This document shows, piece by piece, positions 6,240 to 54,500 of a stretch of DNA of 64,000 nucleotides. The notes below the pieces were generated by a model. The model saw only the letters and a list, made by a program, of their open reading frames with translations, was not told the origin of the DNA and ran no database searches. A program made the position numbers and the translations under genes. The stretch is from Euryarchaeota archaeon UBA557 (lineage in GTDB: Archaea; Thermoplasmatota; Poseidoniia; Poseidoniales; Thalassarchaeaceae). Location: positions 8,337-72,336 of the forward strand of contig DARI01000013.1 in assembly GCA_002503285.1 (NCBI GenBank), written 5' to 3'. Position 1 is the first letter of the stretch. The number at the start of each line of letters is the position of its first letter.

Positions 6240-7145
6240 TTATATTCCGCTTAATACAGCTATTAACCTTAATTTTCCCAACATATTATCACTTGTTCTT
6301 GCACCAAGAATTACTTGACAATCCGGATCCAATATTGATAAAAAACCTTCAGAAACTTGCTCAAGATGTGCTAAAGTCATATCTGGGCCACCTTCTACTT
6401 GTATTAAACAACCCCTTGCACCCTGTACTTCAATATCATAAAGTGGCGATTTTTTAGCCATTTTAACTACATAATCTGGATCCTCAGTGCTCCCAGTACC
6501 AACTACTAGAGTTGTGTCTCCCGATTTATTTACTATTGTCTTTAAATCCATCAAATCTAGATTAATTTTACCAACTTTGGCTAAAGTTGTTACTAAACCT
6601 TCTATTAATTCTCCAATCCATTCGGATCCGGACTCCCAATCCGAATTTCTATCTTTTGCTTGCCATGCAAGGCGTTCCATACTCAATTTTATACATACAT
6701 CAGAAAAATTTTCAAGAGATGGCAATGTATGTTTTGCAATTGCTGACCGGAGAGGTTGTTCGGCAAAAGGGAGTCCAGCTATAGAAACAACGACACTGCC
6801 TGTATCTTGTGCCATCGCAGCAATTTCAGGTGCAACTCCCGAACCAGTACCTCCTCCCAATCCTGCCAAAATAATTACTAATTCAGAAGATTTTAATAAT
6901 GGCTTAAATTCATTTATACCCTCTTTTAATCTATGTTTTGCTACCCTACTAAGAGTTGCTGTCCCTTTATCATGGCCTCCTAAAGATAATTGCAAACAAT
7001 GTGCAGAATTAATTCCAGAAAAAGAATCTTTATCGGCATCAATTAATAGTAAATCTGCAAATTTAGCGCATCTTAAATGGGCTTGACTAGCCCACTTGCA
7101 TCCTATGCCTCCAGCGCCAACAATCAATATGCTACCGCGCTCCAT
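6240..7145 (-). CDS. FtsZ/tubulin-superfamily GTPase, short divergent paralogue
   Basis: The T1-like loop reads ILIVGAGGIGCKWA. The tubulin signature AGLGGGTGSGVAPEIA (T4) is intact. The T7-like motif is GKINLDLMDLKTI (N-x-D-x-x-D). The C-terminal domain is colinear with FtsZ (LVVGTG...ARGCLIQVEGGPDMTL...). There is no C-terminal linker or tail. Confidence 0.75.
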   Translation of the reverse strand: MERGSILIVGAGGIGCKWASQAHLRCAKFADLLLIDADKDSFSGINSAHCLQLSLGGHDKGTATLSRVAKHRLKEGINEFKPLLKSSELVIILAGLGGGTGSGVAPEIAAMAQDTGSVVVSIAGLPFAEQPLRSAIAKHTLPSLENFSDVCIKLSMERLAWQAKDRNSDWESGSEWIGELIEGLVTTLAKVGKINLDLMDLKTIVNKSGDTTLVVGTGSTEDPDYVVKMAKKSPLYDIEVQGARGCLIQVEGGPDMTLAHLEQVSEGFLSILDPDCQVILGARTSDNMLGKLRLIAVLSGI

Positions 7146-7619: not shown

Positions 7620-8441
7620 ATGAATAGTGCGATTTTGTCCTCAAAAAGAGTAATTGTTTTAGGGGCATTATTGATGTTTATGGCAGGTACTGGTCAAGCA
7701 ATTCATAGTGGCGTTGGAGGGGATGCAAATAATCAAGGAGAAGTGGCGATTGCTGGATGTACTTGCCACGCATCTGAACCAGATAATTCTGTAACGGTAA
7801 TACTTGATTCGGTGCCATATCATTATTCATACGGCGTAAGTTATAATATGGAAATTCAACTCATAGGAGGCCCAGAAATACTAGTTGGAGGTCAATCAGG
7901 AGGGTTCGCTCTAAGGGTCAGTAGTGGAACCCTAGAACCAGGAATAGGATATGAAAATTTAATTCAAAATTGGGAAAATGACCCATCAACACTTACACAT
8001 ACTTCGGCAGGATCTAAAGTTGAAGATAGGGCATGGCATATAATTTGGAATTCACCTGACGCTATGGAAGACGATACAACGATTACTTTTTGGCTAGCAG
8101 GAAACTCAGTAAATGGTGATAAAATCCCATCATCATTAGATAGGTGGAATAGATTAAGCGTGACTATCGAAGAAGGAGAAGATAATGGAAAAACTAGGAC
8201 CATATTTTCTGGCAATGGAGACATTAATCCTCCTGCCCCAGTAACTGATGAAATCGATTTGCACCACATGGGTGCAAAGTTAAGAGCACATTGGCTAGGA
8301 TTGCTAGGATTTGGTGCGGTGATATTAGTAATAGTATTTTGTGGTTTGTTTTTAAGATATGGATTTTCAAGACATTATGAAGGACGCAGTAATTTACTCA
8401 AATTGAGAATAAAATATCTCAGAAGGGGTGATCAACTTTGA
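7620..8441 (+). CDS. Exported, C-terminally membrane-anchored protein with a G-C-x-C-H motif; first gene of the Rieske/cyt b operon
   Basis: An N-terminal signal-like segment (VIVLGALLMFMAGTGQA) is followed by AIAGCTCHASEP. The body is beta-rich (GGFALRV, THTSAG, WHIIWNSPD, FWLAGNSVNGD). There is one C-terminal TM (WLGLLGFGAVILVIVFCGLFL). GAGG lies 8 nt upstream of the ATG. Confidence 0.6.
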   Translation: MNSAILSSKRVIVLGALLMFMAGTGQAIHSGVGGDANNQGEVAIAGCTCHASEPDNSVTVILDSVPYHYSYGVSYNMEIQLIGGPEILVGGQSGGFALRVSSGTLEPGIGYENLIQNWENDPSTLTHTSAGSKVEDRAWHIIWNSPDAMEDDTTITFWLAGNSVNGDKIPSSLDRWNRLSVTIEEGEDNGKTRTIFSGNGDINPPAPVTDEIDLHHMGAKLRAHWLGLLGFGAVILVIVFCGLFLRYGFSRHYEGRSNLLKLRIKYLRRGDQL

Positions 8442-8887
8442 AAGATGACGTCGTCATGAGATTACTACGAGATGTTAGTCTCGGAAAGGTATCTGTTGAA
8501 GAAGCCAGGGAAGCACTAGAAGGCATTGATATTTCAGAAGAGAATTATGTAAGGGCAGTTGATCATGGAGTATTTAATATGCCGAAACCGGGAACCATAG
8601 TAAGGGCCAGTATATCGCCCTCTGGCGATTCTTGGTTGATCATCCTAGTAGGATTATGGGGCATAGTCTGGACATTATTTTGGGGAGGATCATTATCATA
8701 CGGATTATACAATCATTGGAATCAACAAATGCTTGCATTTGATTTAGCGATGACCTTGTTGACTATCATAATCATGGGAATCGTGTACCTAAAATATGTT
8801 ATGCCAGACGTAGTAGTTGTAAAGCACAGAAGAAACAAATACATAACAAGGAATGATCCTGAGGCTTGGAAAAAATACGAGGCATGA
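8438..8887 (+). CDS. Small membrane protein: soluble N-terminal helical segment plus 2-3 TM helices
   Basis: The ORF overlaps both flanking genes, giving an operon layout. The hydrophobic segments are WLIILVGLWGIVWTLFWGG and LAFDLAMTLLTIIIMGIVYL. The track start is TTG; an ATG lies at 8456. Confidence 0.5.
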   Translation: MKDDVVMRLLRDVSLGKVSVEEAREALEGIDISEENYVRAVDHGVFNMPKPGTIVRASISPSGDSWLIILVGLWGIVWTLFWGGSLSYGLYNHWNQQMLAFDLAMTLLTIIIMGIVYLKYVMPDVVVVKHRRNKYITRNDPEAWKKYEA

Positions 8888-9735
8888 CCATGGCTAGAAG
8901 ATTCAAATTACGTCCTTTACCTAATGACTCCAATGATAATAAAGAATCACTAAAGATGATAGATCGAAGGGAGTTTATGAGGCTTTCATTTAATACGGCC
9001 GCCGGACTAATCACAGTGGCAAGTATCGGAAGTGTTGGTTTCGCATCACTATTAATGGGACAACCAGAGGCAGATGGAGGAGATACGGCAGTTAGGTTTT
9101 GGGTTCCTTCAGGAGCAGAAGATACGGCTTGGTTTGGAGATCGCCATCTTGAGCCTATGAGTTACAGCGCATTTCAGACTGCAGCTGCCAATACCAAAAC
9201 AGGAATGATAGGTGCTCAAGGAGTCTGGTCAGGATTACCTGTTAACGTAGTTTATGTTCCTCATGAAGAAAATAAAGACTTACCCCTAGTACCTGATAAA
9301 CCAAGATTTCAATACCTGGAGGGTTACGATTTAGGAGGAAAATATGTTGGTTCGGGAAGAGAAGTAGAAGATGATTCAACATATTCCACATTATCAATTC
9401 ATGACAATATGATAATAATATTTTCAAGATGCCCTCATCTCTGTTGTATACCGGGATGGCAATTAGTAACCAATAATTACACAGGAGATACTTGGGCATC
9501 AGGAGGAACGGATTCTGGAGGCGATAAATTATTTTGTATCTGCCATTCCAGTAGATTTGATCCAACAGCGATTGAGAAAAATAGCATGGGAAGAGGAGTC
9601 CCATTTGATTTCATTGGAGTAAGAAGAACTGGTGGGCCTGCACCTAATGGAATGCCCTTAATCCCGTTTGTAGTAAATGGAGATATTATTGAGGCATTAC
9701 CGGATTTTAAAGACTGGTATGCATATTGTGGTTGA
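8866..9735 (+). CDS. Rieske [2Fe-2S] protein with a twin-arginine signal
   Basis: The Tat-like motif is DRREFMRLSFNTAAGLITVA. Rieske box I is CPHLCC (C-x-H-x-x-C) and box II is CICHSS (C-x-C-H-x-S), with both disulfide cysteines present. The start is uncertain (ATG at 8884 or 8956). Confidence 0.85.
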   Translation: MEKIRGMTMARRFKLRPLPNDSNDNKESLKMIDRREFMRLSFNTAAGLITVASIGSVGFASLLMGQPEADGGDTAVRFWVPSGAEDTAWFGDRHLEPMSYSAFQTAAANTKTGMIGAQGVWSGLPVNVVYVPHEENKDLPLVPDKPRFQYLEGYDLGGKYVGSGREVEDDSTYSTLSIHDNMIIIFSRCPHLCCIPGWQLVTNNYTGDTWASGGTDSGGDKLFCICHSSRFDPTAIEKNSMGRGVPFDFIGVRRTGGPAPNGMPLIPFVVNGDIIEALPDFKDWYAYCG

Positions 9736-9746
9736 GGTAGATAAAG

Positions 9747-10613
9747 ATGATTCAATTTTGGTTCTTATGGCTTTTTATTGCAATAGTAGTTGTCATCGTA
9801 GCATTTACTTTACGAAAAGAAAGGGACGATATGCCCAGAAAGGACATATTAAGGGCAGTAGAAAGTAATGCTAGCAATATGGGTTTAGCCGAAAAATTAT
9901 TTTTATGGGCTTTTTCATGGTTAGATACGAGATTTAGAATACAAGATTATTGGGGGATGAGCAGAGATGCATTTCATAGCGTTCACAGGCAGATGCCCCT
10001 TACTCATGCAGAAAAATATAAATTGAGGATTATTTGGTATTGGTACCCACTTTATTGTTTGGGCGGTATTTCATTTTTAGCGTTTATAATATTGGTAATT
10101 ACAGGATCTATACTTGGCCTTTATTATGTACCAGGAGGAGAAGGTGATCCGACTCCTGCATACAGTAGCCTCGAATTTATTATGACTACACTACCATTTG
10201 GATATATAATAAGGTCGATTCACCATTGGACAACTCATTTTATGGTTGCAGCAGTATTCTTACACATGTGTAGAGTTTACTTTACTGGAGCATATAGGAA
10301 TCCTAGAGAATTAAATTGGTTAATAGGAGTTGCATTGATGTTCTTCACAATATTCTTTGGATATTCTGGATATTTGCTCCCCTGGGATAGTTTGGCATTT
10401 GGGGCTGCTACTATTGGAATAAATATGGCAACATCCACTCCTTTAATTGGAGAATGGATGGCTAACATACTATTTGCAGGGTCCACATTATCTGGACAAA
10501 CAGTAACTAGAATGTACTTTTTACATGTCTTTATATTACCAGTCCTAGTAACCGCTTTAATATTAGTTCATTTATTCATAGTTTGGGTTCAAGGGATTGC
10601 TGAACCGCATTAA
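9747..10613 (+). CDS. Cytochrome b6-type subunit (four-helix cytochrome b N-terminal half) with an extra N-terminal TM
   Basis: The product is colinear with plastid and cyanobacterial cytochrome b6: LYCLGGISFLAF..., IRSIHHWTTHFMVAAVFLHMCRVYFTGAYRNPRELNW, GYLLPWD, TVTRMYFLHVFILPVLVTALILVHLF, ending ...QGIAEPH. Both haem-ligand histidine pairs are present. GAGGT lies upstream of the ATG. Confidence 0.85.
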   Translation: MIQFWFLWLFIAIVVVIVAFTLRKERDDMPRKDILRAVESNASNMGLAEKLFLWAFSWLDTRFRIQDYWGMSRDAFHSVHRQMPLTHAEKYKLRIIWYWYPLYCLGGISFLAFIILVITGSILGLYYVPGGEGDPTPAYSSLEFIMTTLPFGYIIRSIHHWTTHFMVAAVFLHMCRVYFTGAYRNPRELNWLIGVALMFFTIFFGYSGYLLPWDSLAFGAATIGINMATSTPLIGEWMANILFAGSTLSGQTVTRMYFLHVFILPVLVTALILVHLFIVWVQGIAEPH

Positions 10614-10624
10614 GAGGTATTTAA

Positions 10625-13408
10625 ATGGGATTAATAGATAGATTTGGAAGGATAGCTGATACATATGTCAGCGAAAGGGACCATTTAATTGAAGCGGAAC
10701 AAGAACGAAGAAGAGTTTTTGTAGGCCACTCTTTTTGGCCTACAGAAGTATTAAGAGATACAATAATCCTAGCCAGTATGGTCATGGTAATATGTTTCTA
10801 TTCATGGATTGTTCCTCCACCCCTGCATAGTGCTGCAGATCCATTTGCTCAAGCGGGATTTGTATTTCCGGATTGGTATGTATTATTCTCATACGGATAC
10901 CTACGATGGGGCGAATACCTACCTCAGTACACAATTCCAGCAGGCCCAATTGGTGATTTCTTTGGTCAGCCATTTATTTATTGGAATGCAGCATGGTGGG
11001 GCGCGGCAATAACTGGCATCCCAGTAGGAATATTGGCCCTACCTCCATTCATAATAGGTAAAAGAGAAAAAAGAGGCGTTGAAGATCCTTGGTTTGCTAG
11101 TGCAGGAGCAGCTTATTTAGCACATGTATGGTTTATTTCCGTATTCTCCATAAATATATTCTTAGAATTATATGCAAAAGATTTGACCAATTATTGCTTT
11201 AAAGATTCTCACGATTATTTCTTCTGCGGCCGACAGGCTCCTTGGACTGCTACGATATTTAATGCCATTCCTTGGATATTATCTGCCTTTTTCTTATTTG
11301 TGATTTTATATTTCGTCACAAGAAAATTTTTGCTAAATACGATGGGTGCTAGAGTTACTCCATCGCTCGGAAAACAAGTCACAATAGGTACCATAATTAT
11401 TACAGTACTTATCTCAACTGTAACTTGGCCGATATATGAAGGCGGGTTTTGGGATTATGGAGGTTTAGGTGCAATGGATGATATCTCACAATTAGATGAA
11501 ATGCGAGACCAGCCACAAGATACATTAGTCCAATATGGTCAAGGAAATGTTTGGGATACATGGGAAGATGAATGTTTATCAAATGAAGAAAGTTTCGGTC
11601 TAGGAGTCTGGGAAAACATAAATCCAGAAGATTTTGAAGAATGGTGCGTGATACCTGCATCTAATTGGATAGACTGGTCCATCTATCAACCGACAAAGTT
11701 CACTTTAATTGATTATTCTGGCGTCAATGGGCATGCAGATTATAACACTGGACAAAATCAAGCATTTTCAGAAATGACATATGTCGGAAATTCTGATGAA
11801 ACAGAAGTAAGTATTTCATCTTTCGAATCTTTTACAGTGGAAGATTTTGGTGTAAGCGAATTGCCCACCGATATTGGATGTAATTTTAGAACAAGTACAT
11901 ACGGAGCAGGAGATCATCAGCAGACAGTATATTTAACTAATTCAATTAATGAAGAAGTTTGGAGAATGAAAGGGGAAACTTGTTCACTAGAAACAATTTA
12001 TCTTAATTCAGGAGAAACATACACAATCTATTTTGAAACAACTTCAAATTCAGTTAATGAATCAATTACAATGATTACAGATTTTTCAGCTACGGCATAT
12101 CAACCATTATTATTGGCAGAAGATGGGACAGCCCTAATCAGATCTTCCAGTATTTTAACAGTGGATGAAATGAAAGAACTATCAATAGAGAATCCAACTT
12201 ATCATAAGAATCCCAAGAGTCTGGATGCCAAATTAATATACTCATTATTCATACCTTGCTTAGGAGTCGGGGCGATGGTCTTTATGTTAATGAGAAGTAT
12301 GGCAAGGGGATATGAATGGGAAATGAACAAATGTTATGGCTGTGATCTTTGCGATGATGCATGCCCCGTAAGGTTGTTTAATGCAGGAGATAAATTAAAT
12401 ATAATTTATAATACATGGAATAATGAAGATGATGGAGTTCCCCTATATTCTTGTTTGACTTGTAGTGCATGTACAAATGCCTGCCCTCAATTAGTAGATT
12501 ATGATTCATATGTAGATATTCGAAGAAATTTGATTGTAGGAGGGCCCCCTGCAGCTGAGATACCCCATACAGTACTGCAAGCAGTACTGGCCGCCGAGGC
12601 GGACGAGGATGAAGCATTTATTCCTACAGCTGATTATCCAATAGATTCCAATATTGGCTATTATCCAGGATGCGTAGACTACATAGATCAAGAAATGGTA
12701 TTTAGCCATGTAAATGAAGGTACCATGAATCTTGGAGAAACAACTACTGCAGCATTCACGCTATTCGAAGAGTTAGGGCAAGATGTTACTTATTTAGGAA
12801 GGGATTTCTTGAAATGTTGTGGTCACGACCAAAAGTGGCAAGGATTATCAGAAGTATTTGAAAAGCTAAAAGGATATAATCAAAAGAAAATTGGGGAAAG
12901 TGGAATTGATACATTAGTAACATCATGTGCCGAATGTTTCAGAACCTTCGCATTAGATTATGAATTAGAAGACATGAAGGTTATGCATACAACCGAATTC
13001 TTGACTGAAAATGGATTTGACATGGAATTAAAAACTGAGGATGACATAACAGTAACTTACCACGATCCTTGCAGAATTGGTAGACAAATGAATTTGTATG
13101 ACGAGCCAAGAAACTTAGTAGAATCAATTGAAGGAGTGTCTTTAGTAGAGATGGAACATAATAAAGAAGACGGATTATGCTGTGGAGTTTCCAGTATGAT
13201 GTCATGCAATGAAAACAGTAGAGGTTTACGACTTCAAAGGTTTGATGAAGTTAAAGCCACAGGTGCGGATATCATGCTAACAACATGTCCAAAATGTGTA
13301 AGTCACTTTGAATGTTTAAAATTTGAGGGTGATCCAAGACATGATTTTGAAATATTAGACGTAGTCAGTTTCTTAGCAAGGCAAGTAAATGCAAAAAATA
13401 AAGTTTAA
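10625..13408 (+). CDS. Fusion: b6f subunit-IV-like (cytochrome b C-terminal) membrane domain, ~270-aa exported acidic domain, a TM, then a cytoplasmic HdrD/GlpC-like 2x[4Fe-4S] + 2xCCG module
   Basis: The N-terminus reads FWPTEVLRDTIILASMVMV...AADPFAQAGFVFPDWYVLFSYGYLRW, the PEWY-type ef-loop of subunit IV. The C-terminus has CYGCDLCDDACP and CLTCSACTNACP, two CxxCxxCxxxCP motifs. These are followed by YYPGC...KCCGH, YHDPC...LCCGV and TTCPKC, i.e. two CCG domains. GAGGT lies upstream of the ATG, 11 nt after the cyt b6 stop. Confidence 0.8.
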   Translation: MGLIDRFGRIADTYVSERDHLIEAEQERRRVFVGHSFWPTEVLRDTIILASMVMVICFYSWIVPPPLHSAADPFAQAGFVFPDWYVLFSYGYLRWGEYLPQYTIPAGPIGDFFGQPFIYWNAAWWGAAITGIPVGILALPPFIIGKREKRGVEDPWFASAGAAYLAHVWFISVFSINIFLELYAKDLTNYCFKDSHDYFFCGRQAPWTATIFNAIPWILSAFFLFVILYFVTRKFLLNTMGARVTPSLGKQVTIGTIIITVLISTVTWPIYEGGFWDYGGLGAMDDISQLDEMRDQPQDTLVQYGQGNVWDTWEDECLSNEESFGLGVWENINPEDFEEWCVIPASNWIDWSIYQPTKFTLIDYSGVNGHADYNTGQNQAFSEMTYVGNSDETEVSISSFESFTVEDFGVSELPTDIGCNFRTSTYGAGDHQQTVYLTNSINEEVWRMKGETCSLETIYLNSGETYTIYFETTSNSVNESITMITDFSATAYQPLLLAEDGTALIRSSSILTVDEMKELSIENPTYHKNPKSLDAKLIYSLFIPCLGVGAMVFMLMRSMARGYEWEMNKCYGCDLCDDACPVRLFNAGDKLNIIYNTWNNEDDGVPLYSCLTCSACTNACPQLVDYDSYVDIRRNLIVGGPPAAEIPHTVLQAVLAAEADEDEAFIPTADYPIDSNIGYYPGCVDYIDQEMVFSHVNEGTMNLGETTTAAFTLFEELGQDVTYLGRDFLKCCGHDQKWQGLSEVFEKLKGYNQKKIGESGIDTLVTSCAECFRTFALDYELEDMKVMHTTEFLTENGFDMELKTEDDITVTYHDPCRIGRQMNLYDEPRNLVESIEGVSLVEMEHNKEDGLCCGVSSMMSCNENSRGLRLQRFDEVKATGADIMLTTCPKCVSHFECLKFEGDPRHDFEILDVVSFLARQVNAKNKV

Positions 13409-13683
13409 TTAAATGCGAAATATGCTGAGATTAATGATAGTATAGCATTTAATAAAATTCCTATCAATGTGAGTTTTGCTACTTGTTTATTTTGATAACC
13501 TAGTGCTGTTAACCACAAGAATAACCCTATCAAGCCGCCGCATGCAAATGATATCCATGCAGCCTCTAAACTCAAGAATAACATCATAAAAAGCCAAATG
13601 AATACTCCTTGAAATAATGATAATAGAGATAAGGGATTTAAAAAATATTTCTTGAGATCATCCATAGACATCCGAGGTAACAC
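13405..13683 (-). CDS. Small hydrophobic membrane protein, function unknown
   Basis: The 92-aa ORF has three hydrophobic helices. It is convergent with the fusion gene, and the stops overlap by 4 nt. Confidence 0.4.
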   Translation of the reverse strand: MLPRMSMDDLKKYFLNPLSLLSLFQGVFIWLFMMLFLSLEAAWISFACGGLIGLFLWLTALGYQNKQVAKLTLIGILLNAILSLISAYFAFN

Positions 13684-13702
13684 AGAGCAATGAAACTGAC
13701 GA

Positions 13703-14080
13703 TTGATAAAGGAAGGGCATCTGAAGTTAAACGAAGGAGCATTAAGAGTGACGAATCGTGACGACTTGACCGTGAGGAGAAATTCTCAACAAAGAAGAAT
13801 CAGGATGATGATGAATGCTGTTAAATCTGAAGAAAGAGCGAAACTAAAAGGCGGCCCTGAAGCTGTAGCATGGGTAAAAGAAGAATTATGCATTGGTTGT
13901 GATCAATGCACAATTGTATGTGATGATGATGCAATAGAAATATATCATACTCCTTTAAAAAGCCCAATAATGAACGTAGATAATAATAAAAAAGCAAAGG
14001 TCTTGAGAGATCCCTGTACAGGTTGTAAGTTATGTGTGTTGGCTTGTCCAACTGATGCGATAGTAATGATAGATAGGTGA
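13703..14080 (+). CDS. 2x[4Fe-4S] ferredoxin
   Basis: The cluster motifs are CIGCDQCTIVCDDDAI and CTGCKLCVLACPTDAI. The track start is TTG; the likely ATG is at 13805 (MMMNAVK...), giving about 92 aa. Confidence 0.75.
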   Translation: MIKEGHLKLNEGALRVTNRDDLTVRRNSQQRRIRMMMNAVKSEERAKLKGGPEAVAWVKEELCIGCDQCTIVCDDDAIEIYHTPLKSPIMNVDNNKKAKVLRDPCTGCKLCVLACPTDAIVMIDR

Positions 14081-14084
14081 AATT

Positions 14085-14378
14085 ATGAGTGAAAAAGATC
14101 CATTGAGATTTGGAGCAGAATTTGGTCCAAAGGGCATAAATAACCCTAGCGGTGTTTCATTATCAACATTTAAGACATTAGTATGGGTATCAAATCTTGG
14201 CGGATTAATATTATTTGCGATAGGATTAGAGTTAATGGTAGTTCAACAATTATTTGGAATTGGATTATTATGCCTAATTGCAGGCGTGATCATAGCATTA
14301 TTTCCATCAAATTATGAAATTACAGGAATGGAGGAGTTATCTGATTCCATTAAATTGAATACTCAAGGTGAGGAGTAA
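14085..14378 (+). CDS. Small membrane protein (two TM helices)
   Basis: GGTGA lies upstream of the ATG, which is 4 nt after the ferredoxin stop. The hydrophobic segments are LVWVSNLGGLILFAIGL and LFGIGLLCLIAGVIIALF. Confidence 0.4.
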   Translation: MSEKDPLRFGAEFGPKGINNPSGVSLSTFKTLVWVSNLGGLILFAIGLELMVVQQLFGIGLLCLIAGVIIALFPSNYEITGMEELSDSIKLNTQGEE

Positions 14379-14877
14379 ATTAAACATGCCTGAACATGGA
14401 GTTAGAAACATAGAAACACCAATTGGTAACTTGTCAATACATGCAACTAATGATGGAATTTGTAAAGTATCATCTGAATACAAAATTGAAAATAATAAAA
14501 TTGGAATATATCATTTAGATCAGGCAGAAAAGTGGTTTAGTGGATATTTTAAAAAAAAAATATTTGATTTTCCAAAATTTGATTTTTCAAACTTATCGAA
14601 CTTTGGATTAGTAGTTACAAGTACACTTCTTGAAAACGTTGAATTTGGAAATACTTCTTCATATTCGGAATTGTCATTGACCGCAAATAAACCAGGTTCA
14701 AGCAGAGCAGTCGGGACAATAATGAAGAATAATTCATTGCCAATCATCATTCCTTGCCATAGAATAATAAAAAAAAATAATCACATTGGAAATTATAATT
14801 TTAATAAAGGGATAGATACAAAAGGCTGGCTATTGATGCATGAAGGATTAAAAATCCGGGATAGTCATGTAATTTAA
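14368..14877 (+). CDS. ogt: Methylated-DNA--protein-cysteine methyltransferase (O6-alkylguanine-DNA alkyltransferase)
   Basis: The C-terminal domain reads SYSELS...GSSRAVGTIMKNNSLPIIIPCHRII, which contains the PCHR active site. The track start is GTG. An ATG at 14386 is preceded by GGTGAGGAG. Confidence 0.8.
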   Translation: MRSKLNMPEHGVRNIETPIGNLSIHATNDGICKVSSEYKIENNKIGIYHLDQAEKWFSGYFKKKIFDFPKFDFSNLSNFGLVVTSTLLENVEFGNTSSYSELSLTANKPGSSRAVGTIMKNNSLPIIIPCHRIIKKNNHIGNYNFNKGIDTKGWLLMHEGLKIRDSHVI

Positions 14878-17639: not shown

Positions 17640-18518
17640 CTAATGTCCTAACTTGCATATTAAATCAACTGCCTGTTCAATTGTCATTATTCCCTCATCT
17701 AATTCTATCAGAATATCATTTAAAGAAGGGTGAGAAAGTAGTCGGGAATCCCAGGCTGAGAGAAGTCTTTCTTTAGTTCTTAGAATATTATTGGCAACAG
17801 TGTGCTGGCATGCCTCTATAGAATAAATTAATGATGAAATACCTTCGCCTGTAATAGCGGAAACAAGATGGACATCCGTATTGGAATTTTCATTCATATC
17901 TAAGGAGTACTTAATTGAATCAAAAGTTGCATGAGAACTGGGAATATCAGATTTATTAATTGCTACGATATCAGCTAACTCCAAAATTCCAGCTTTTTCG
18001 GCTTGAATTATATCTCCCATGTCAGGCCCTTCGACTAATAAAATCCTATCTGTGAATGCTATAATTCTAATTTGAGATTGCCCTGAGCCCACAGTTTCAA
18101 TGATTATTCTTGTCCAACCCGCTGCAGATAGTAAGTCGACCATTGGTGCTAGGGAATATGCCAATCCACCTGGGTGATTTCTTGTAGCTATAGATCTAAA
18201 GTAAACAGATTCGGATGAGTCAATTCCCTGCATTCTCATTCTATCTCCTAGAAGGGCACCGCCTGATTTTGGAGAAGATGGGTCGACTGCTAAAATTGCA
18301 ACTTTTTCCCCTTTTTTTAACCATTCAGATGTTAAAGTTCCAATAAGAGTTGATTTTCCAACCCCTGGTGGACCCGTTACACCTAGTGTCCAAGTTTTTG
18401 TTGGCGGAATATCAGGCCTAAATCCTGATTCAATTTTTGAAATTAATTTACCTAGACTTCGCCTATCTCCGTTCAAAGTTGAATGCAATAAGGTACCCTC
18501 ACTCAAATCCAACGCCAT
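17640..18518 (-). CDS. meaB: Methylmalonyl-CoA mutase-associated GTPase MeaB/ArgK
   Basis: The P-loop reads GVTGPPGVGKSTLIG. The family-typical DPSSPKSGGALLGDRMRM and INKSD motifs are present. The gene overlaps the upstream B12-binding subunit gene. Confidence 0.85.
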   Translation of the reverse strand: MALDLSEGTLLHSTLNGDRRSLGKLISKIESGFRPDIPPTKTWTLGVTGPPGVGKSTLIGTLTSEWLKKGEKVAILAVDPSSPKSGGALLGDRMRMQGIDSSESVYFRSIATRNHPGGLAYSLAPMVDLLSAAGWTRIIIETVGSGQSQIRIIAFTDRILLVEGPDMGDIIQAEKAGILELADIVAINKSDIPSSHATFDSIKYSLDMNENSNTDVHLVSAITGEGISSLIYSIEACQHTVANNILRTKERLLSAWDSRLLSHPSLNDILIELDEGIMTIEQAVDLICKLGH

Positions 18519-18949
18519 CCTTTGTCTTCTCCAACACCAACAGGTAAAGCATTATTTTTTCGATTATCAACCTCAGATAAAAAATCTGTGATGACGTGCG
18601 AGTATGTTCCTGGGCCAAAAATAGCCCTAACTCCTGAATTAAATAAATTATTATGATCTTTCTCTGGAATTATTCCTCCTGCGAATACCACTATATTATT
18701 CATGCCCGAATCTTTTAATTTTTGACATATTTTTGGGATGAGCACTTGATGTGCACCGGACAATGAAGATAGTCCTAGTGCGTCAGCGTCTTCATCCATA
18801 ACGATCCTATTAATCTCATCAGGTGTTTTCCGGATTCCGGTATAAATTACTTCGTGACCCGCATCTCTCAATATTCGAGTTATCACCTTGGCACCCCTAT
18901 CATGCCCATCGAGACCAGGTTTAGCAATCACTATTCGCATACCCTTCAT
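18503..18949 (-). CDS. Methylmalonyl-CoA mutase small (B12-binding) subunit
   Basis: IVIAKPGLDGHDRGAKVITRILRDAGHEVIY contains the DxHxxG cobalamin-binding motif. The size is about 148 aa. Confidence 0.85.
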   Translation of the reverse strand: MKGMRIVIAKPGLDGHDRGAKVITRILRDAGHEVIYTGIRKTPDEINRIVMDEDADALGLSSLSGAHQVLIPKICQKLKDSGMNNIVVFAGGIIPEKDHNNLFNSGVRAIFGPGTYSHVITDFLSEVDNRKNNALPVGVGEDKGWRWI

Positions 18950-19054
18950 TAGGGCCGATGGTATCGCATATTTTCAAATAACCCCAAGAGATTACATTTT
19001 ATTGCATCCTATACGGAATGCTCAAGGGCGTCCTTACTCAATCAGAAGTCAGAG

Positions 19055-20608
19055 ATGAGCGACAAGGAGGACAAGGCCGTTGATTTGCGGCTCAGAAAGA
19101 CACGTTCCAAATCAGGAGGCGGTAATGCTAGAATTGCATCACAACATGCAAAAGGTAAGATGACAGCACGAGAAAGAATAGATGTTTTATTCGATGAAGA
19201 TAGTTTTATGGAAATAGATTCTCTAGTCGAGCATAGGTGCCAAGACTTCGGAATGGAACGAAATATTATCCCTGGGGATGGAGTAATATGTGGACATGGG
19301 ACCATAGATGGGAAACTTGTATACTGCTTTGCCCAAGACTTCACAGTATATGGTGGATCACTGGGTGAAATGCATGGATTAAAAATATGTAAAATATTAG
19401 ATATGGCAATTAAAAGTGGTTCTCCTATAATTGGTTTAAATGATAGTGGAGGGGCTAGAATACAAGAAGGAGTAACAAGTTTAGGTTCATATGCTGAAAT
19501 ATTTTTTCGAAATGTAAGGGCAAGTGGAGTCATTCCCCAGATATCAGTGATTATGGGGCCATGTGCAGGAGGAGCAGTATATTCTCCAGCAATTACTGAC
19601 TTTGTAATTATGGTAGATAAGACTTCACATATGTTTATAACAGGACCGGAGGTAATTAAAACTGTAACAAATGAATCAGTTACATTTGAAGAATTAGGTG
19701 GTGCTGGAACTCATGGTTCAAAATCAGGTGTAACTCATTTTACTGCTGCAGATGATAAAGAAGCATTAGAAATAACAAAAGAATTAATTAATTTTTTACC
19801 TGCTAATAATTTAGATAAGGTCCCAACTAAGGAAACCAACGATTCATTTGATAGAGAATGTTTGGCATTAGATACAATAATACCAACAGACTCAAATCAG
19901 CCATACGATATGACCGATGTGATATACGAAATTTTAGATAACGGAGGGTTTTTAGAAATTCAGGCAGATTTTGCTCCAAACATAGTAATTGGTTTTGGTA
20001 GGTTAGGAGGGCATACTATAGGGATTGTTGCAAATCAACCGAAATTTTTAGCAGGGTGTTTGGACATTAATGCATCAATAAAAGCAGCACGTTTTATACG
20101 ATTTTGTGATTCGTTTAATATATCATTAGTTACTTTAGTTGATGTACCTGGATTCTTACCTGGTGCTACACAAGAGTGGGGAGGAATAATCAGACATGGT
20201 GCCAAACTATTGTATGCATATGCCGAGGCAACGGTACCGAAGCTTACTGTGATAACTAGAAAAGCATACGGAGGTGCTTATGATGTAATGTCCTCAAAAC
20301 ATATTCGTGGAGATTATAACATAGCATGGCCAACAGCAGAGTTGGCAGTCATGGGAGCAAGCGGCGCAGTACAAATTATCCACAAAAGAAGAATAAATGC
20401 CGCAATTAATCCCAATGAAGAACGTGAAAGACTAGTTGAGGATTATAATGAGAAATTTGCTAATCCATATAGGGCTGCTGCACTAGGATATATAGATGAT
20501 GTAATTAAACCAAGAAATACCAGAAAGGTACTAATTAGGTCGTTAGGCGCATTATTAGAAAAAGAAGAAATTAGGCCTTCTAGAAAACATGGAAATATCC
20601 CATTATGA
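19055..20608 (+). CDS. pccB: Acyl-CoA carboxyltransferase (propionyl-CoA carboxylase beta / methylmalonyl-CoA decarboxylase alpha family)
   Basis: The product is a 517-aa two-domain carboxyltransferase with [23 protein letters not shown] and AYGGAYDVM. Confidence 0.9.
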
Positions 20609-21898: not shown

Positions 21899-21967
21899 AT
21901 TATATCATCCTCATTAAATATGGCTAAAGCTGATTAGTTGTAATGTTTGCGGGGAAAGAAGTAGAGA

Positions 21968-22085
21968 GGCACAACGATGAACGTTCCCGTGGGCTTTCGC
22001 ACCACAGTACAAGAAACAACGCAGGAGGGCTTGACTTCCGGGTTCGATATGGGACCGGGTATTACCCCTCCGCTATGGCCGTGCT
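21968..22085 (-). rRNA. rrf: 5S rRNA
   Basis: The reverse complement reads GCACGGCCATAGCGGAGGGGTAATACCCGGTCCCATATCGAACCCGGAAGTCAAGCCCTCCTGCG...CGTTGTGC. The terminal helix is GCACGGC/GTTGTGC. The ends are accurate to a few nt. Confidence 0.85.
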
Positions 22086-22106
22086 CAACTCTATCTTCGA
22101 ATTTAT

Positions 22107-22129
22107 GAATTGATATGCACTGTTGGACA
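22107..22129 (-). other. 3' half of the pre-23S processing helix (trailer)
   Basis: The trailer RNA TGTCCA-ACAGT-GCATATCAATTC pairs with the leader GAATTGATATGC-C-TGGACA at 25080-25098, as a perfect 12 bp plus 6 bp. Pairing continues inward (GAGG, CACATA, AGG blocks) toward the mature 23S ends. Confidence 0.7.
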
Positions 22130-22149
22130 GAGGCCCACATAGGCCTGGA

Positions 22150-25060
<2,911 letters not shown>

Positions 25061-28554: not shown

Positions 28555-31500
28555 TTAATTCTTGTTCTTTTCCCACCACATGTGACCATATGCATTCCAT
28601 TGTTCCATAGTCCAGCCATCAGGTAATCCAGTAAGTGGAAGAGGGGGCCCTCCAGGTGAAGAGTGTTTCAAACTTGGCAGCGACGAAGATAAGGCTGCAT
28701 TTATTTCGTCTTGAGAAACTGTGCCTGACAATGCTTCTCCTGATAATGATGTGTCCAGTGCTGAATTTCTTCTTTCAGAAATATTTCCTGATGACAATGC
28801 AGAACCTGCAGGGATTAATTCTTCATCAGAATTAATGGAAGTAGATTTTCTCATATTAAATCCAACGAAACCCAAGGACATTAAAATCAAAATAAATATT
28901 ATTGGGATAACCCATGATGGCAGGCCTGCATCTTCCATGAACTCTGAAAGCCCTCCATTTCCTGTTTCTCTCGCCATACTTACCTTGAGTAATAATGAAG
29001 AATCTGTTATTGACATTGATTCTGAAGAAGAGTTTGCAAATAGTGTAAATTGTTTAAGTCCAATTGAAGATTTACTTACAGGAGATGCCCCTGCCGATAG
29101 ACTAACTTCCCCTCCGGGAGAAATTTGATTAATTTGTGTTTTATCCAATGATATTTCCCATCCTTCTAATTGATTAAACTCGATATTGACATTAGTCATT
29201 ATATTACCATTATTTTTTAGAATGATATCAAAAAATGAGTCCGAATTAATTCCTATATCTTCAATTTGTATTATTGGAGATTCCAAAGTTATCCAAATTG
29301 ATGGTAAAACTGAAATTGATATTTCCACAGTATAAGTTGCTATTTCTCCGTTAGGCGTGGTAGCTTGAATAATCACAGGAACTTTATCGGATAATTTACC
29401 TTTTTCTAAATTTGGAGGTAAAGTTATACTTATTTGTACTACTGCTTCTCGGTTCATATCCATAGTAAAATAATTACCTGATAAAAATCCAACTTCCCAA
29501 GAATTAGGAACTGTCCCTATACTTATCGTAATATCTAAAGGTACATTTCCAGTATTTTTAATTTCAATCTCCGATATTCCATCCGTGCCCAAGGCTATGT
29601 CTAAATCATATGATTCAGCCAGATCTAATGCCGCTATTTCCTTCACGATTAATTTTGTGCCGCTTCTTTCCAATATCCCTTCATCAGACGTAGTTTTTAT
29701 AGAAATTGTATTCATATCTCCCTTTTGAGAAGATAAGGGAATAATAGTTTTTATTATTATACTAGAATATTCATTGGGGGCCAGTACAATAGAAACTGAA
29801 TTAGTGAGCCCAATGGGAATTGATTCAGAACTTTCATAAACTTGTAAAGGCCAAGTATTTACTGATGATAAAACTTGAATTTCGAAACTAATTTCAATAT
29901 TTCCTAAATTTGATATAACCAAATTTGTAGAAATAGTATCTCCATTTGTAACTGCCCTCGGTTCGGCAATTTCAACAGTTTCAAATTTATTACCTTCATC
30001 ATCAGATAAATATGTAGAAAACAGTTTACTTTCCAAAACTGTTATCATTGCCCATTCACTAGTGTACATTGAAGAATCTGATATTGAAGTAGTAGTGCAC
30101 ATTATTTCTTCAGTAACTCCCGCTAATGGCTGATAGTCTAATGATTTAGGCACTTTCACCCTTATTGGAAGAGGGAGAAATTGCAATCTATTTAATGGAT
30201 CAAGTACTAGTTCGGAAGATTCAGTATTTCCGATATGAATTAACCATCTATTTGCTGTTTCACAACTTACCTCATATTGAGTAGGGCCGTTACCAATATT
30301 TCTTATTGATAAAGAAAATAATCCAAATTCACCAGGCTTCGCAGATAAATCAGTTTCTCCTGCCACTACTGTAAATAATCCTTCAACTGTATCCACTATA
30401 GTTGTAAGTCTTATTGAGTGAGAAATAGTAGGTGCATTCTTATCAAATAGTGTCAAATCAGTAACATAATCGCCTGGCAATGAATATCTTGCCAATGCGT
30501 TATCAGTAATATCTGCATCTCTATTTGATAAGTTTAGAGATAATGTGTATTTATCTCCTTCTTGACCTGATGGGTTTAGAATCCAGGGGCCTGACTCATT
30601 CAAAATTTTCCACCATTCATCTTCTGGTTGATTTAATATTCCTTGTTCACTTATTATCTGTAATGGTGAAATAGATAAATCAACAGTTATTTGAGACGTT
30701 CCTTCATTTTTAATTTGCAATTTAAAAACTATTGAAGTATCTTCCCTAGGATCTAAATTTCTCGTTTTTGCATTATTTAATTCCTCGAGGTTATTTGGAA
30801 TTGTGCCGTTTTCAAATAAAGGTATGATTCTTACTCCTATTTGAGAAACATTAAATGAGTAATTAAAAATATTATTATTTACACCTTCTAATTCATCATT
30901 AAATTCAGATACCTCAGATAAAGAATCAAGTCTTAACTGAATTACATGTTCGCCGGTTGTATCAAAGGAATGAGTAAATGACAAAGAGGCAATTTGACCT
31001 CCTTCAAGAGACGCCATTTGTGATGATTTAATTAAGTCATTAGTAGTCAAATCATGGATTGATATTGAATAGTCGCCCGTAGGAAGAGAAGCCCTATTGG
31101 ACCATTTGGCATTTATTGATAGAATATCGCCCTGAAGTGGAGTAGATGTAAATGAGGATATAGAATCTGGAATTATAGATAGATCGGAACCGAATGTTTC
31201 TTCAATAATTCCAGATACTACAAGGGAATATTGTTGAATATTGCCTTTGGAATTTCCAATTTCAAGAGACCATATTCCTTCTTCAGCTGAATCTAATTTT
31301 ATTCTTTCTACATTATTTACATTGTCTGATATGCCGCCTGATGTACTATATCCAGAAATAAAATTATTACCATTATAAATAACTCCACTAGGAGATGTGA
31401 TTCTTAAATCTAGATTATTAACTAATTTACTAATACTTTGATCACTAGTTACGGAACCCTCTCTGTCATTCCAAACTAGAGTTGCATCTAGAGAAGAACC

Positions 31501-51558: not shown

Positions 51559-54500
51559 CTATGTAGTTCTGTCATCATATCTTATGGGTGAACCACTATT
51601 GCCCCTCACCCCATCCAATAAATCATCTTTAATTTCAAAATTATCATTCAGCCAGTCTCCATCAGTATCCCAATTGGTTGGGTCGGTGCCGTCTGCTATC
51701 ATATCACCATCAATATCAATTAACCACCATCCAAATACATATTCTCCAAGGCCCAAATTAGGCAAATGAAATTGATCACCTGCAAATCTATTATATTCAT
51801 CAGTCCACGCCCCATTTATGAGAATATTATCATTAGAAGTATTAATTATTTCATAATTCTCATCGTTATCATCTATAATAAGTGAGTATAACATATCTCC
51901 ATCATTAATTCGATTCATCCTTAAGTAATTTGTAGATACTGCCGTACTACCTGAACAAGTGCCCAATAATGATTCACGTAATTGCCACCATTCATGGACT
52001 ATTTCTCCGGCGCAGTCATACAAACCAGCGGCTCTGACTAGAGAGGGAGATGATAGAGTGGCATTAACCGTAGCATAGTACTCCTGGAAGTTTGTGTATG
52101 GCACGTATGTACAAGTACCTGAAGAACAATCCCAGTCTCCATCATTATCTGCATCATAACCAGCATCGGTAGGATCAGTAGCATCATGAGTGAACCATGA
52201 CCAATTTAAATTTGGACGGGATATATATCCTTTTGAAACATCCACAGGCTTAAAGTTAGTTGCAGATACTTGATACCATTGAACAGAAATTTTTAGTAAA
52301 GATGACCAATTATCATTTGTCTCATTCCATCCTCTATGATATTCATAGAAATCCGGCATCATATCTCCATCTGTATCATTATCTAATGGATTGGTGCCGA
52401 ATTTGAAAATCTCACGTCCATCGGATAGGCTATTATCAATTACATAATTTGTGATAATTCCATTAATGATAATTGGTTTCATTAGTACAGAATCATCATC
52501 AGAATCAAAATCTAATGGATTAGTACCATTATCATATTCCATGAGATTAGTGAAATATAATTCCAAAGTTCCACTATCGATCTGATCACTCAATGGATTC
52601 AATATAAATTGTCTTTCAATCCAATGCCCTTGTTCTGCCGGGATATCTCCTAATTCTCTATCATACCATCCATCTGCGTCGGGGTCATAATTTACATCTA
52701 ATGGATTAATTGGATTTAATGACCATCTATATGAATTAATAGGCAAAAATTCTCCATATATTGAATAACAATATTCCCAACCATCAGTCATTCCGTCTCT
52801 ATCCGAGTCAACATCATTTGGATCACTGATTCCAGCTAAACTAATATTAAAATTATCATAATTAAGCTCATTAATCAGCCCAATTTTCTCGGATGCAGAA
52901 ATACTTTTTGAAGAAAATGTCGTATAGAGAGTACTTTTGGCTGATGATAAAGATAATTCATTTTCCTCCATTTGTGCAATTATTGCATCTTTTCCATATG
53001 AAACTAAACCTGTTCCATTTGGTATTGAACCAACAGCAAGCCTTTTTCCATATATTCTTGCATCATATTCTGCTAAATTATCATAGGACTCAGCTTCGGT
53101 TATTATCCCATTTCCATCGCAATCAAAGGAATCATTATCAGAATCAATATCAACATCGTAATCAGATAGTGGATTCATTGACCATGAGTTTTCTTCTAAA
53201 TTCCATTCTGTGAACCAATATTCATAGCCATCACTCATTCCATCCCTATCAGTATCAAATGAGTTTGGATCAGTTATACCAAAAATAGATTCTAAGAGAG
53301 GCTTTGGGGCCAAACCTGATTGCCAATCTACAAATTGTTCCATGGCTAAACTCGCCCTAGATTCCTTTGCAAAAATTATTCTATATATCCTGTTTACTGA
53401 TTCTTGAGAATTTATTGATTCCACTTCAGTCCAAAACTTAGGTGCATCTGAAGGGGCTAATCCTCCGTTAGATGGGTTATTATTAGTCATATTTAATTCT
53501 ACAATGTCAGTTATCCCATCAGAATCTGAATCATAATTGCCATCACCTGCAACTAATGGATTAAGGGTCCATAATTCATCAGAAGAGTTCCACTTTGTAA
53601 ATATCAATTCTATTCCATCTAAAATACCATCTCCATCCGTATCTGGATTATTTGGATCTGCAGTAAATCCAGATACATTATTACCTTCAAGTGACATAAA
53701 TTCACCGAAAGATTGAGACGATTCTGCGCCTATCCAGGGCATTGATGTTAATTCTCCCGCAACATTTGTTAAGAAAAATTGAGGAGAAGATATTGTATTA
53801 CTTATTTCACTTTTATTACTTGAGATAACATTATATTCTTCCCAATTATTCATCCCATCGCCATCGTAATCTCCTAAACTATCTCCCTCATTGACAAGGT
53901 TTAATGACCAAACTTGATCAAACAAACTCCATCTTGAATGATAAAACTCCCATCCATCTGGCATTCCATCTCTGTCAGAATCCGCATCTAGAGGATTGGA
54001 AGAGCCGATATCCTGAAAAATAATGTCATCTATGATAACTGAATAGTACAAACTAGATTGATCTCCAAAAGATTCTAATGCAAAATCCTTCCAAGAATTA
54101 TGAGATAAATTTGTAGAAAAATTTTCTGGATACGTTAACCCTGAAGATGTAGATGTGGAATATAAAATATCTTTATTTAGGTAGTATTCCATCCAATTAA
54201 CTAATTGTTCATCTGAACTTAGAATTCCATCATTATTTATATCAAATCCATCGCCATCAGGATTATTCAATGAATCTGAACCATTCATTGGATTAATACC
54301 AGAGTTTCTAGGTGACCAATTACATGCATAACGAGCTTCCCACCCATCGGGTAAGCCATCACCATCCGAATCTACTGAATTAGGATCAGTATGCATCCAA
54401 TCTTTGGCTGCTTCGGATGTTTCACCATGAGAAAGTAGACCATTTTGTAAAGTCAAATCTAATAAATTACTCCACTTATATTCGCAAATATTTTTTAGAC

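Follow-up and report, generated by a model that had tools for sequence, protein, structure and literature searches.

Marine Group II (MGII) archaea are known to encode a Rieske protein and a cytochrome b without a canonical bc1 complex or cytochrome c1, and this arrangement has been named the 'MGII-specific complex III' (Tully 2019). Two neighbouring precedents are also known, namely bacterial cytochromes b fused to 4Fe-4S/MvhD modules in the absence of a Rieske protein (Kao & Hunte 2014, PMC4122944) and a proposal made for the Rieske/cytochrome b complexes of anammox bacteria (PMC12954380). Here, the complex is described from a 64,000-nucleotide stretch of DNA from Euryarchaeota archaeon UBA557 (assembly GCA_002503285.1, contig DARI01000013.1, positions 8,337 to 72,336), which was analysed as a whole and is called the window below. 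In this locus, subunit IV of a b6f-type complex is continued at its C-terminus by an HdrD-type iron-sulphur (Fe-S) module, so that both are parts of one 927-residue protein, and the gene for this fusion directly follows the genes for the Rieske protein and cytochrome b6.

The cluster comprises the following open reading frames (ORFs), numbered in the order of the plus strand, with lengths in amino acids (aa) and transmembrane (TM) helices where predicted.

7620-8441, plus strand: ORF1 (273 aa), exported reeler-like beta-sandwich protein ('choice-of-anchor V'), anchored by a C-terminal TM helix and ending in a conserved cytoplasmic tail
8438-8887, plus strand: ORF2 (149 aa), small two-TM subunit of the DUF7318 family
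8866-9735, plus strand: ORF3 (289 aa), Rieske [2Fe-2S] protein exported by twin-arginine translocation (Tat), with one TM anchor (helix 46-64)
9747-10613, plus strand: ORF4 (288 aa), cytochrome b of the four-helix b6 type, preceded by one further TM helix at the N-terminus
10625-13408, plus strand: ORF5 (927 aa), the fusion, in three parts
10625-11434, plus strand: ORF5 residues 1-270, subunit IV (cytochrome b C-terminal domain) with PDWY and five TM helices
11435-12232, plus strand: ORF5 residues ~271-536, MGII-specific acidic extracellular insert with a GOLD/MAM-like beta-sandwich
12233-13408, plus strand: ORF5 residues 537-927, sixth TM helix, then the HdrD-type 2x[4Fe-4S] unit and two CCG domains
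13405-13683, minus strand: small membrane ORF (92 aa) between ORF5 and the ferredoxin gene
13703-14080, plus strand: ORF6 (125 aa), 2x[4Fe-4S] ferredoxin with an RnfB-like domain
14085-14378, plus strand: ORF7 (97 aa), small two-TM protein with helices 35-53 and 56-74

A sequence-only reading of this DNA had described five plus-strand ORFs between 7620 and 13408 that overlap or lie 11 nucleotides (nt) apart. The recomputed coordinates and successive spacings (-4, -22, +11 and +11 nt) match this description, and profiles, motifs and topology agree with the assignment of the five products, in order, as an exported anchored protein, a small membrane protein, a Tat-Rieske protein, a b6-type protein and a subunit IV fusion. 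The same reading placed a ferredoxin and two small membrane ORFs after them; the ferredoxin is there, but one of the membrane ORFs (13405-13683) is actually on the minus strand and precedes the ferredoxin gene, occupying the 294-nt gap between ORF5 and ORF6.

The proposal of a b6f-type core is borne out. Cytochrome b is split, with the b6 and subunit IV genes 11 nt apart, and the complex resembles b6f and the b6c complexes of Firmicutes and heliobacteria in its Tat-exported Rieske protein, its four-helix b6 with four haem-ligating histidines and a CxGG motif, and its separate subunit IV, in which PDWY takes the place of a PEWY-type motif. ORF4 matches PF00033 (Cytochrome_B) at 2e-41, and its best matches in the PDB are cytochrome b6 chains (6rqf_I, 3.3e-42). 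All four haem histidines, in helices B and D, align with those of solved b6 structures, and the cysteine of YCLGG, C104, is aligned to the one that binds haem cn in b6 (FYCLGG), CxGG being the motif by which haem cn is defined (Dibrova et al. 2017, PMC5600118). These motifs suggest that ORF4 probably carries haems bL and bH together with a covalently bound haem cn. ORF3 is assigned as the Rieske protein because it contains both Rieske boxes, CPHLCC (189-194) and CICHSS (224-229), because it matches TIGR01416, although weakly (4e-8, below the family cut-off), and because it is homologous to the Rieske genes of all related loci in a local phmmer map; phmmer against the PDB gave no match. It has a twin-arginine motif (RREFMRL), and its true start is probably downstream of 8866. 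In other Thermoplasmata (L005 5343-7973; L009-L012; L013-L017; L059; related loci are cited by such numbers), cytochrome b6 has an N-terminal extracellular extension of 300-800 aa, which in one group is a Big_5 domain; in ORF4, all that stands in its place is the additional N-terminal TM helix.

The first part of ORF5 is taken to be subunit IV on three grounds. Residues 1-280 gave three PDB matches by phmmer (E<=10), all of them b6f subunit IV with WP...ADPFA...PDWY aligned; a 20-sequence profile of the N-terminus matches the C-terminal half of cytochrome b (3e-14) and b6f subunit IV (3e-10); and PF00032 is found in 23 of the 29 sequences in an alignment of ORF5 and the relatives that its first 560 residues retrieved in an exhaustive search. 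This part gave no match when scanned directly with Pfam and NCBIfam. The profile searches that the sequence-only reading had suggested thus succeeded for Cytochrome_B, CCG and Fer4 and gave a weak match for Rieske, and for subunit IV they were negative in direct Pfam scans but positive by profile. The motif of the quinol-oxidation (Qo) site, PDWY at residues 82-85, is invariant in a conservation set of 36 fusions drawn from several archaeal lineages.

The last part of ORF5 bears the full HdrD signature, with two CxxCxxCxxxCP and two CCG motifs (CXnCCXnCXXC). Pfam detects CCG in two stretches (4.7e-22) and 4Fe-4S dicluster families at residues 564-622, and the NCBIfam matches include LdhH, GlpC and GlcF. 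Across the 36 fusions, the cysteines of the cubane motifs (570/573/576/580 and 610/613/616/620) and of the CCG motifs (683/731/768/771 and 816/852/853/888/891) are invariant, and C732, conserved in at least 90%, is nearly so. The best PDB sequence match of the module is EtfD (9ojn, 4.8e-21), in an alignment that spans the soluble part only. Foldseek with an AlphaFold2 (AF2) model, the C-terminus of which has an HdrB/EtfD-like fold, likewise finds EtfD (4.6e-14), then LutA and HdrB.

By hydropathy, the TM helices of ORF5 lie at residues 46-64, 126-144, 162-180, 214-232, 252-270 and 537-555, and the first CxxCxxCxxxCP motif (from C570) begins about 15 residues past the sixth. The number of helices before the Fe-S domain, by crude counts, is even in seven of eight fusions (six in MGII, four in six of the seven shorter ones). 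Because of this even count and the known position of the subunit IV N-terminus on the cytoplasmic side, the HdrD module is placed in the cytoplasm, on the negative side of the membrane as had been proposed. The MGII insert accounts for 265 residues, contributing two added TM helices and an acidic extracellular beta-sandwich with four cysteines. Its core (residues 375-495) is modelled by AF2 with a predicted local distance difference test score (pLDDT) of ~80-90 and is matched by Foldseek to GOLD/MAM domains; no redox motif was found in the insert. It occurs only in MGII homologues and is absent from those of Marine Group III (MGIII), Thermoplasmata and the other fusions (540-700 aa).

ORF5 has 469 homologues, and the 120 among the matches listed are all full length (926-936 aa) and 74-98% identical. 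Because of this number and because independent assemblies share the gene order, the fusion is not a product of chance; misassembly or a frameshift as its source was rejected on the same evidence. Synteny was followed by a scan of one genome per GTDB species and then by the local phmmer map of the loci found, which gave the following gene orders.

MGII: ORF1, DUF7318, Rieske, b6, subunit IV fused through the insert to HdrD, (minus-strand ORF), ferredoxin, TM protein
MGIII and other Poseidoniia (~35 loci): the MGII order without the insert, with subunit IV fused to Fer4 (~351 aa) and a CCG protein (~295 aa)
MGIII and other Poseidoniia, downstream: a polyferredoxin or flavodoxin fused to 2x[4Fe-4S] (329 aa), followed by a small TM protein
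Other Thermoplasmata: DUF7318, Rieske, (extracellular domain fused to) b6, subunit IV fused to HdrD (550-700 aa), then a downstream module
Other Thermoplasmata, downstream: polyferredoxin fused to MvhD, or a split HdrA-like flavoprotein and MvhD
Bathyarchaeia and Geothermarchaeales: Rieske, b6, subunit IV fused to HdrD, with an HdrA-like gene
An uncultured archaeon (L003/L004/L020): pentahaem cytochrome c, small TM protein, Rieske, b6, subunit IV fused to HdrD, HdrC, HdrB, HdrA, MvhD
Anaerobic methanotrophic archaea (ANME) and Methanosarcinales: a related soluble HdrD-like protein heading hdrCBA-mvhD clusters

From these orders, the fusion of subunit IV with HdrD is concluded to be ancient and widespread and always to lie within a Rieske/b6 operon. 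The gene order and the fusion, which the sequence-only reading had suggested searching for in Thermoplasmatota and Poseidoniales, were found in MGII, in MGIII in split form and in other Thermoplasmata. The possibility that relatives keep these genes unfused and scattered is not borne out, as both the order and the fusion are conserved; in MGIII, the CCG half is a separate gene. In most of the MGIII loci, the stop of the first gene overlaps the start of the second, so that the two are translationally coupled.

Downstream of the HdrD module, every lineage has a ferredoxin-type gene, which in MGII encodes a ferredoxin of 110-125 aa. ORF6 matches Fer4_21 (5.6e-13) and rnfB (3.9e-13), its real start is probably Met35-37, and it is likely to be the cytoplasmic partner of the HdrD module, as its conserved position suggests. 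In L064 (8885-9871) and other MGIII loci, the gene in this place encodes a fusion of flavodoxin with 2x[4Fe-4S], and in other MGIII genomes a polyferredoxin. The flavodoxin fusion is a sign that the sister lineage has a cytoplasmic partner containing flavin. Homologues of ORF7 come immediately behind the ferredoxin-type gene in MGII (1e-30 to 1e-35), and genes placed alike in MGIII and Thermoplasmata match it weakly (1e-9 to 1e-3). The minus-strand ORF, which contains three hydrophobic stretches, has a homologue at the same place and on the same strand in L001 (7e-30) and L002 (4e-28) and, more weakly, in L025. Because it intervenes, ORF6 and ORF7 form a separate transcription unit in the window. 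In MGIII and Thermoplasmata, nothing comes between the HdrD/HdrB-like gene and the gene of ferredoxin type.

The HdrD module resembles HdrDE, DsrMK, TmcBC, HmcEF and QmoC, in which a cytoplasmic unit of 2x[4Fe-4S] and two CCG domains has a haem-b membrane partner and exchanges electrons with quinone or phenazine. In those systems the partner is a dihaem b of NarI/HdrE type, whereas here it is the Rieske/b6/subunit IV core, and no NarI-type gene, such as HdrE would require, is present in the cluster. The host differs as well, being an aerobic non-methanogen; its group is described as one of aerobic heterotrophs (Tully 2019), and no substrate of the CoM-S-S-CoB type is known in it. Closer in this respect is mycobacterial EtfD (Rv0338c; 9ojn), an aerobe's protein that also combines TM helices, two [4Fe-4S] clusters and two CCG domains in a single chain. 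However, EtfD has its own five-TM monohaem-b domain where the N-terminus of ORF5 is subunit IV, and its linear [3Fe-4S] cluster with a C-T sequence, its histidine ligand in CxHC and its non-catalytic cluster contrast with CCGHD and CAEC in ORF5. The 'PDWF-FeS' clade (Kao & Hunte 2014, PMC4122944) likewise has a cytochrome b of the bc family joined to 4Fe-4S/MvhD modules, but its clusters are without Rieske proteins and CCG domains, and it is not an HdrD fusion. The anammox Rieske/cytochrome b complexes are similar in their NAD(P)-linked and flavin modules and in the idea that the low-potential chain could reach soluble carriers; they differ in having separate subunits and multihaem c and no fusion of subunit IV with HdrD (PMC12954380). 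The soluble HdrD-like proteins of ANME and Methanosarcinales, among the closest relatives listed, are 47-50% identical to the C-terminal part of a short fusion (P0332) and share the downstream HdrC/B/A/FlpD genes with L003/L004, but are neither membrane-anchored nor linked to Rieske/cytochrome b genes.

On the outer side, the complex differs from b6f and b6c in lacking cytochrome f, c1 and dihaem c and in having ORF1 and the DUF7318 protein as extra subunits, just as its subunit IV differs in its extra helices and its HdrD module. The sequence-only reading had found no CxxCH in the cluster and hence none of these cytochromes. The present scan agrees, as no CxxCH, CxxxCH or CxxxxCH occurs in any cluster ORF, and extends the result to the whole 64-kb window, where no CxxCH occurs in stop-free reading frame segments of at least 80 aa. 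A c-type cytochrome in the same operon elsewhere is absent from the MGII and Thermoplasmata loci, but the distant L003/L004/L020 lineage has one, the pentahaem cytochrome c. CxxCH in HdrD/HdrB-like proteins of other loci was considered and rejected as haem sites, as it sits in Fe-S motifs (CYGCH, CPxCH). A missing c1 is the ordinary state of archaea with blue copper proteins as carriers, and halocyanin is among the most transcribed MGIIb genes in published transcription data. Among the non-overlapping window ORFs of at least 90 aa, the 49 longest contained no cupredoxin-like C..H..M motif.

Two archaeal systems offer a comparison for this side of the membrane. The haloarchaeal complex (halocyanin, pNar) also has a Rieske/cytochrome b core without cytochrome c1 and a copper protein as its outer partner. 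In Sulfolobus SoxLN-CbsAB, the outer-side partner is CbsA, an exported and anchored cytochrome b558/566, and the likeness lies in the c1-less core and the exported, TM-anchored, beta-rich outer protein. In neither system is cytochrome b or subunit IV known to bear an Fe-S/CCG module in the cytoplasm, and ORF1 has no detectable relation to CbsA or to cupredoxins. ORF1 has a signal peptide, matches choice_anch_V of NCBIfam (8e-20) and has a strongly conserved C-terminal tail. Although MGII and MGIII versions are only ~25% identical, G46-C47-x-C49-H50, H127, W139, W143, N162, D174 and W176 are invariant. The AF2 model (pLDDT 68) is a beta-sandwich with a TM helix, for which Foldseek finds, with low TM-score, only the generic beta-sandwiches of cohesin and YcnI; F-spondin reeler domains were the only PDB matches of a profile, and these were marginal; an identity as a cupredoxin or haem-c protein is unsupported by the model and these matches. 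ORF1 takes the operon slot that the pentahaem cytochrome c has in L003/L004, and it may be hypothesised that it is the outer partner that takes the Rieske electron. Cytochrome f is an N-terminally exported beta-sandwich with a C-terminal anchor, and the similar build of ORF1 can be regarded as an analogy.

Two apparent links of ORF1 to other proteins were rejected. It has no homology to the Big_5 extension that cytochrome b carries in Thermoplasmata, and an apparent ORF1-Rieske fusion (P0229, 437 aa; L008 4172-5485) is treated as a chimeric assembly and not as Rosetta-stone evidence, because within a TM helix its sequence changes abruptly into a linker rich in Gly, followed by a b6f-type Rieske protein of foreign origin, on a contig of 5.9 kb. 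ORF2 matches the Pfam family DUF7318 (5.6e-5) and is weakly similar to the N-terminal TM hairpin of actinobacterial QcrA; in MGII, MGIII, Thermoplasmata and L003/L019, the gene immediately before that of the Rieske protein is a homologue of it.

HdrDE, DsrMK and QmoC follow an electron-wire logic like that of EtfD. In EtfD, a cytoplasmic donor feeds electrons into a chain of four Fe-S clusters (D1-D4), spaced 7-9 Angstrom apart, which leads to haem b and menaquinone (PMC13083937). Haem cn, which lies on the cytoplasmic face at the quinone-reduction (Qi) site, has long been proposed as an acceptor of ferredoxin electrons (PMC5600118). Because of these two precedents, electron input towards Qi is favoured, and the complex is read, with an about even chance of being right, as a menaquinol-oxidising Rieske/b6 'complex III' with a cytoplasmic Fe-S wire. 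A menaquinone system is suggested by the PDWY motif, which correlates with menaquinone and low-potential Rieske proteins (PMC4122944). The Rieske protein, b6 with haems bL, bH and cn, and subunit IV would oxidise menaquinol at Qo, and the Rieske electron would leave on the outside to ORF1 and/or a blue copper protein encoded elsewhere. The HdrD module, with two cubane and two CCG-bound clusters about 15 residues from the membrane, would wire bH/cn to a ferredoxin-type partner, the ORF6 ferredoxin together with ORF7, the small membrane protein. The donor, either a thiol or ferredoxin reduced in the oxidation of 2-oxoacids, would send electrons via ORF6 and the clusters of ORF5 to cn/bH, from where they would reach menaquinone at Qi; the menaquinol so formed would be re-oxidised at Qo. 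Such an enzyme would combine a quinol oxidase with a ferredoxin(thiol):quinone reductase, and the input route would have analogues in EtfD, in HdrDE working in reverse and in the proposed ferredoxin-to-haem-cn route of b6f. MGII are aerobic degraders of proteins, peptides and fatty acids that have an orphan 'RnfB' and no Rnf complex (Tully 2019), and the input model fits an organism of this kind. Coupling to a ferredoxin or a thiol/disulfide pair was an inference in the sequence-only reading and still is, and the conserved ferredoxin, flavodoxin, HdrA and MvhD neighbours strengthen the idea.

Several points weigh against electron input through such a wire. The AF2 monomer of ORF5 is of only moderate confidence overall (pLDDT 67), and the proximity that would let the Fe-S module reach the haems is something we infer, as are the occupancy of the cofactor sites, the partner and the direction of flow; gene content, motifs, homology, synteny and predicted topology are what the data show. 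For the outer-side acceptor, neither Foldseek nor the profile against the PDB recognised a cofactor fold in ORF1, and in the window the minus-strand gene splits the ferredoxin gene from ORF1-5. ORF5 has the full HdrB-type cysteine set, with CC where EtfD has CT and CAEC where EtfD has CPHC, a set no less suited to catalytic disulfide chemistry than to a passive wire. Finally, sequence alone cannot decide the direction of electron flow.

A complete and invariant HdrB/HdrD-type cysteine set, as in a catalytic disulfide-reducing site, would also be at home in a quinone-based bifurcation with cytoplasmic output, the main rival, which is possible but rather unlikely. Electrons from Qo would be split between the Rieske protein and oxidase on one branch and bL, bH/cn and the HdrD module on the other, the latter delivering them to a cytoplasmic disulfide or to ferredoxin; this output would replace or accompany quinone reduction at Qi, and low-potential reductant would be made from quinol. 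The HdrA-like, MvhD and flavodoxin partners in related lineages speak for this scheme, as does the unproven proposal that anammox Rieske/cytochrome b complexes make NAD(P)H (PMC12954380). However, the need for it is unclear in an aerobic heterotroph, which already makes reduced ferredoxin and NADH, and no candidate for a disulfide substrate is known in MGII. In menaquinone systems, bH has a potential of about -100 mV, and transfer from bH to a ferredoxin at about -400 mV would be steeply uphill. Moreover, in EtfD, the characterised aerobic enzyme with haem b and an HdrD-type module, electrons flow into the quinone pool (PMC13083937).

The matches of the Fe-S module to EtfD, LutA, LdhH, GlpC and GlcF described above would also be expected if the module were a docking site for an unlinked dehydrogenase or electron-transfer flavoprotein (ETF), in the manner of GlpC, LutA, GlcF or EtfD, in fatty-acid or hydroxy-acid oxidation, with the neighbouring ferredoxin incidental. 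MGII genomes do encode fatty-acid oxidation (Tully 2019), and a beta-oxidation gene is highly transcribed. This explanation is nevertheless distinctly unlikely, as a ferredoxin-type gene always adjoins the cluster and no etf, glcD or lut genes lie beside it in ~50 loci (etf genes were found neither in the window nor in the related loci compared), and the ligand changes specific to EtfD are absent from ORF5. Least probable is that ORF5 acts outside the Q-cycle, as an independent HdrDE-like quinone-linked enzyme on a subunit-IV-like anchor or as a regulatory or redox-sensing Fe-S protein: cytochrome b modules have been reused as anchors in the bacterial 'PDWF-FeS' clade, with 4Fe-4S/MvhD fusions and no Rieske protein (PMC4122944), but subunit IV alone holds no haem and cannot relay electrons, its PDWY motif is invariant, and its gene always comes after the Rieske and b6 genes, overlapping or 11 nt away.

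The window is archaeal, with 23S and 5S rRNA genes, ~35% G+C and one tRNA-Lys, and proteins homologous to those it encodes carry the annotations Candidatus Poseidoniales, Thalassarchaeum or Marine Group II. The 23S and 5S rRNA genes lie at 21966-25046 on the minus strand; because there is no 16S rRNA match within the 64 kb, an unlinked rRNA arrangement is suggested. Immediately upstream of the cluster is a gene of the tubulin/FtsZ family (CetZ-like; 6240-7145, minus strand), and this neighbourhood is kept in the MGII relatives L001, L002 and L008. An O6-methylguanine-DNA methyltransferase-like gene (14368-14877, plus strand) overlaps the end of ORF7 by 11 nt, with the same layout in L001, and is probably unrelated to the respiratory cluster. 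Nearby downstream, at 17640-20608, catabolism of propionate or of odd-chain or branched-chain compounds is indicated by genes for a MeaB GTPase, a propionyl-CoA carboxyltransferase and the B12-binding small subunit of methylmalonyl-CoA mutase, which are syntenic in L001/L002. Two giant minus-strand ORFs lie at 28555-33363 and 51559-57279; one encodes a 1602-aa subtilase (Peptidase_S8), in line with extracellular proteolysis, and the other a 1906-aa protein without a Pfam match.

The sequence-only reading held the combination to be unlike the described bc1, b6f, Firmicute, haloarchaeal and Sulfolobus complexes, and no paper describing it was found, the missing c1 alone having been published before. 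For the fusion of subunit IV with HdrD in a Rieske/b6 operon, no description was found in the openly searchable literature, and an earlier mention elsewhere is possible; the term heterodisulfide reductase was not found in the MGII-related papers surveyed for it. Nor did the literature searched contain a description of Rieske/cytochrome b complexes linked to Hdr-type bifurcation machinery (HdrA, MvhD, the multihaem variant). In its widest form, the proposal is that, across Thermoplasmatota and some other archaea, a covalent link would hard-wire the b6f-type Qi-side haems (bH/cn) to soluble Fe-S and flavin carriers, as a ferredoxin(thiol):quinone reductase or a bifurcator, with a new outer partner that would be neither a haem-c protein nor a cupredoxin and has an invariant CxCH...H; this can be put forward only tentatively, as a somewhat doubtful possibility.

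MGII and MGIII are among the most abundant heterotrophs of the ocean, and this is the only recognisable complex III of both. If the HdrD module does exchange electrons with the Qi-side haems, the complex would be a respiratory junction absent from textbooks, in which ferredoxin and thiol pools are coupled directly to the Q-cycle, and estimates of the energy yield of MGII and MGIII would change. It would also provide a natural fusion with which to test whether haem cn accepts electrons from ferredoxin and whether the low-potential branch from Qo can be tapped for soluble acceptors. If electron input in particular is true, it would be a working example of the ferredoxin-to-haem-cn route debated for cyclic electron flow through b6f. 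The wider family, with its HdrA and MvhD partners and its multihaem variant, joins Rieske/cytochrome b complexes to the machinery of Hdr-type flavin-based bifurcation.

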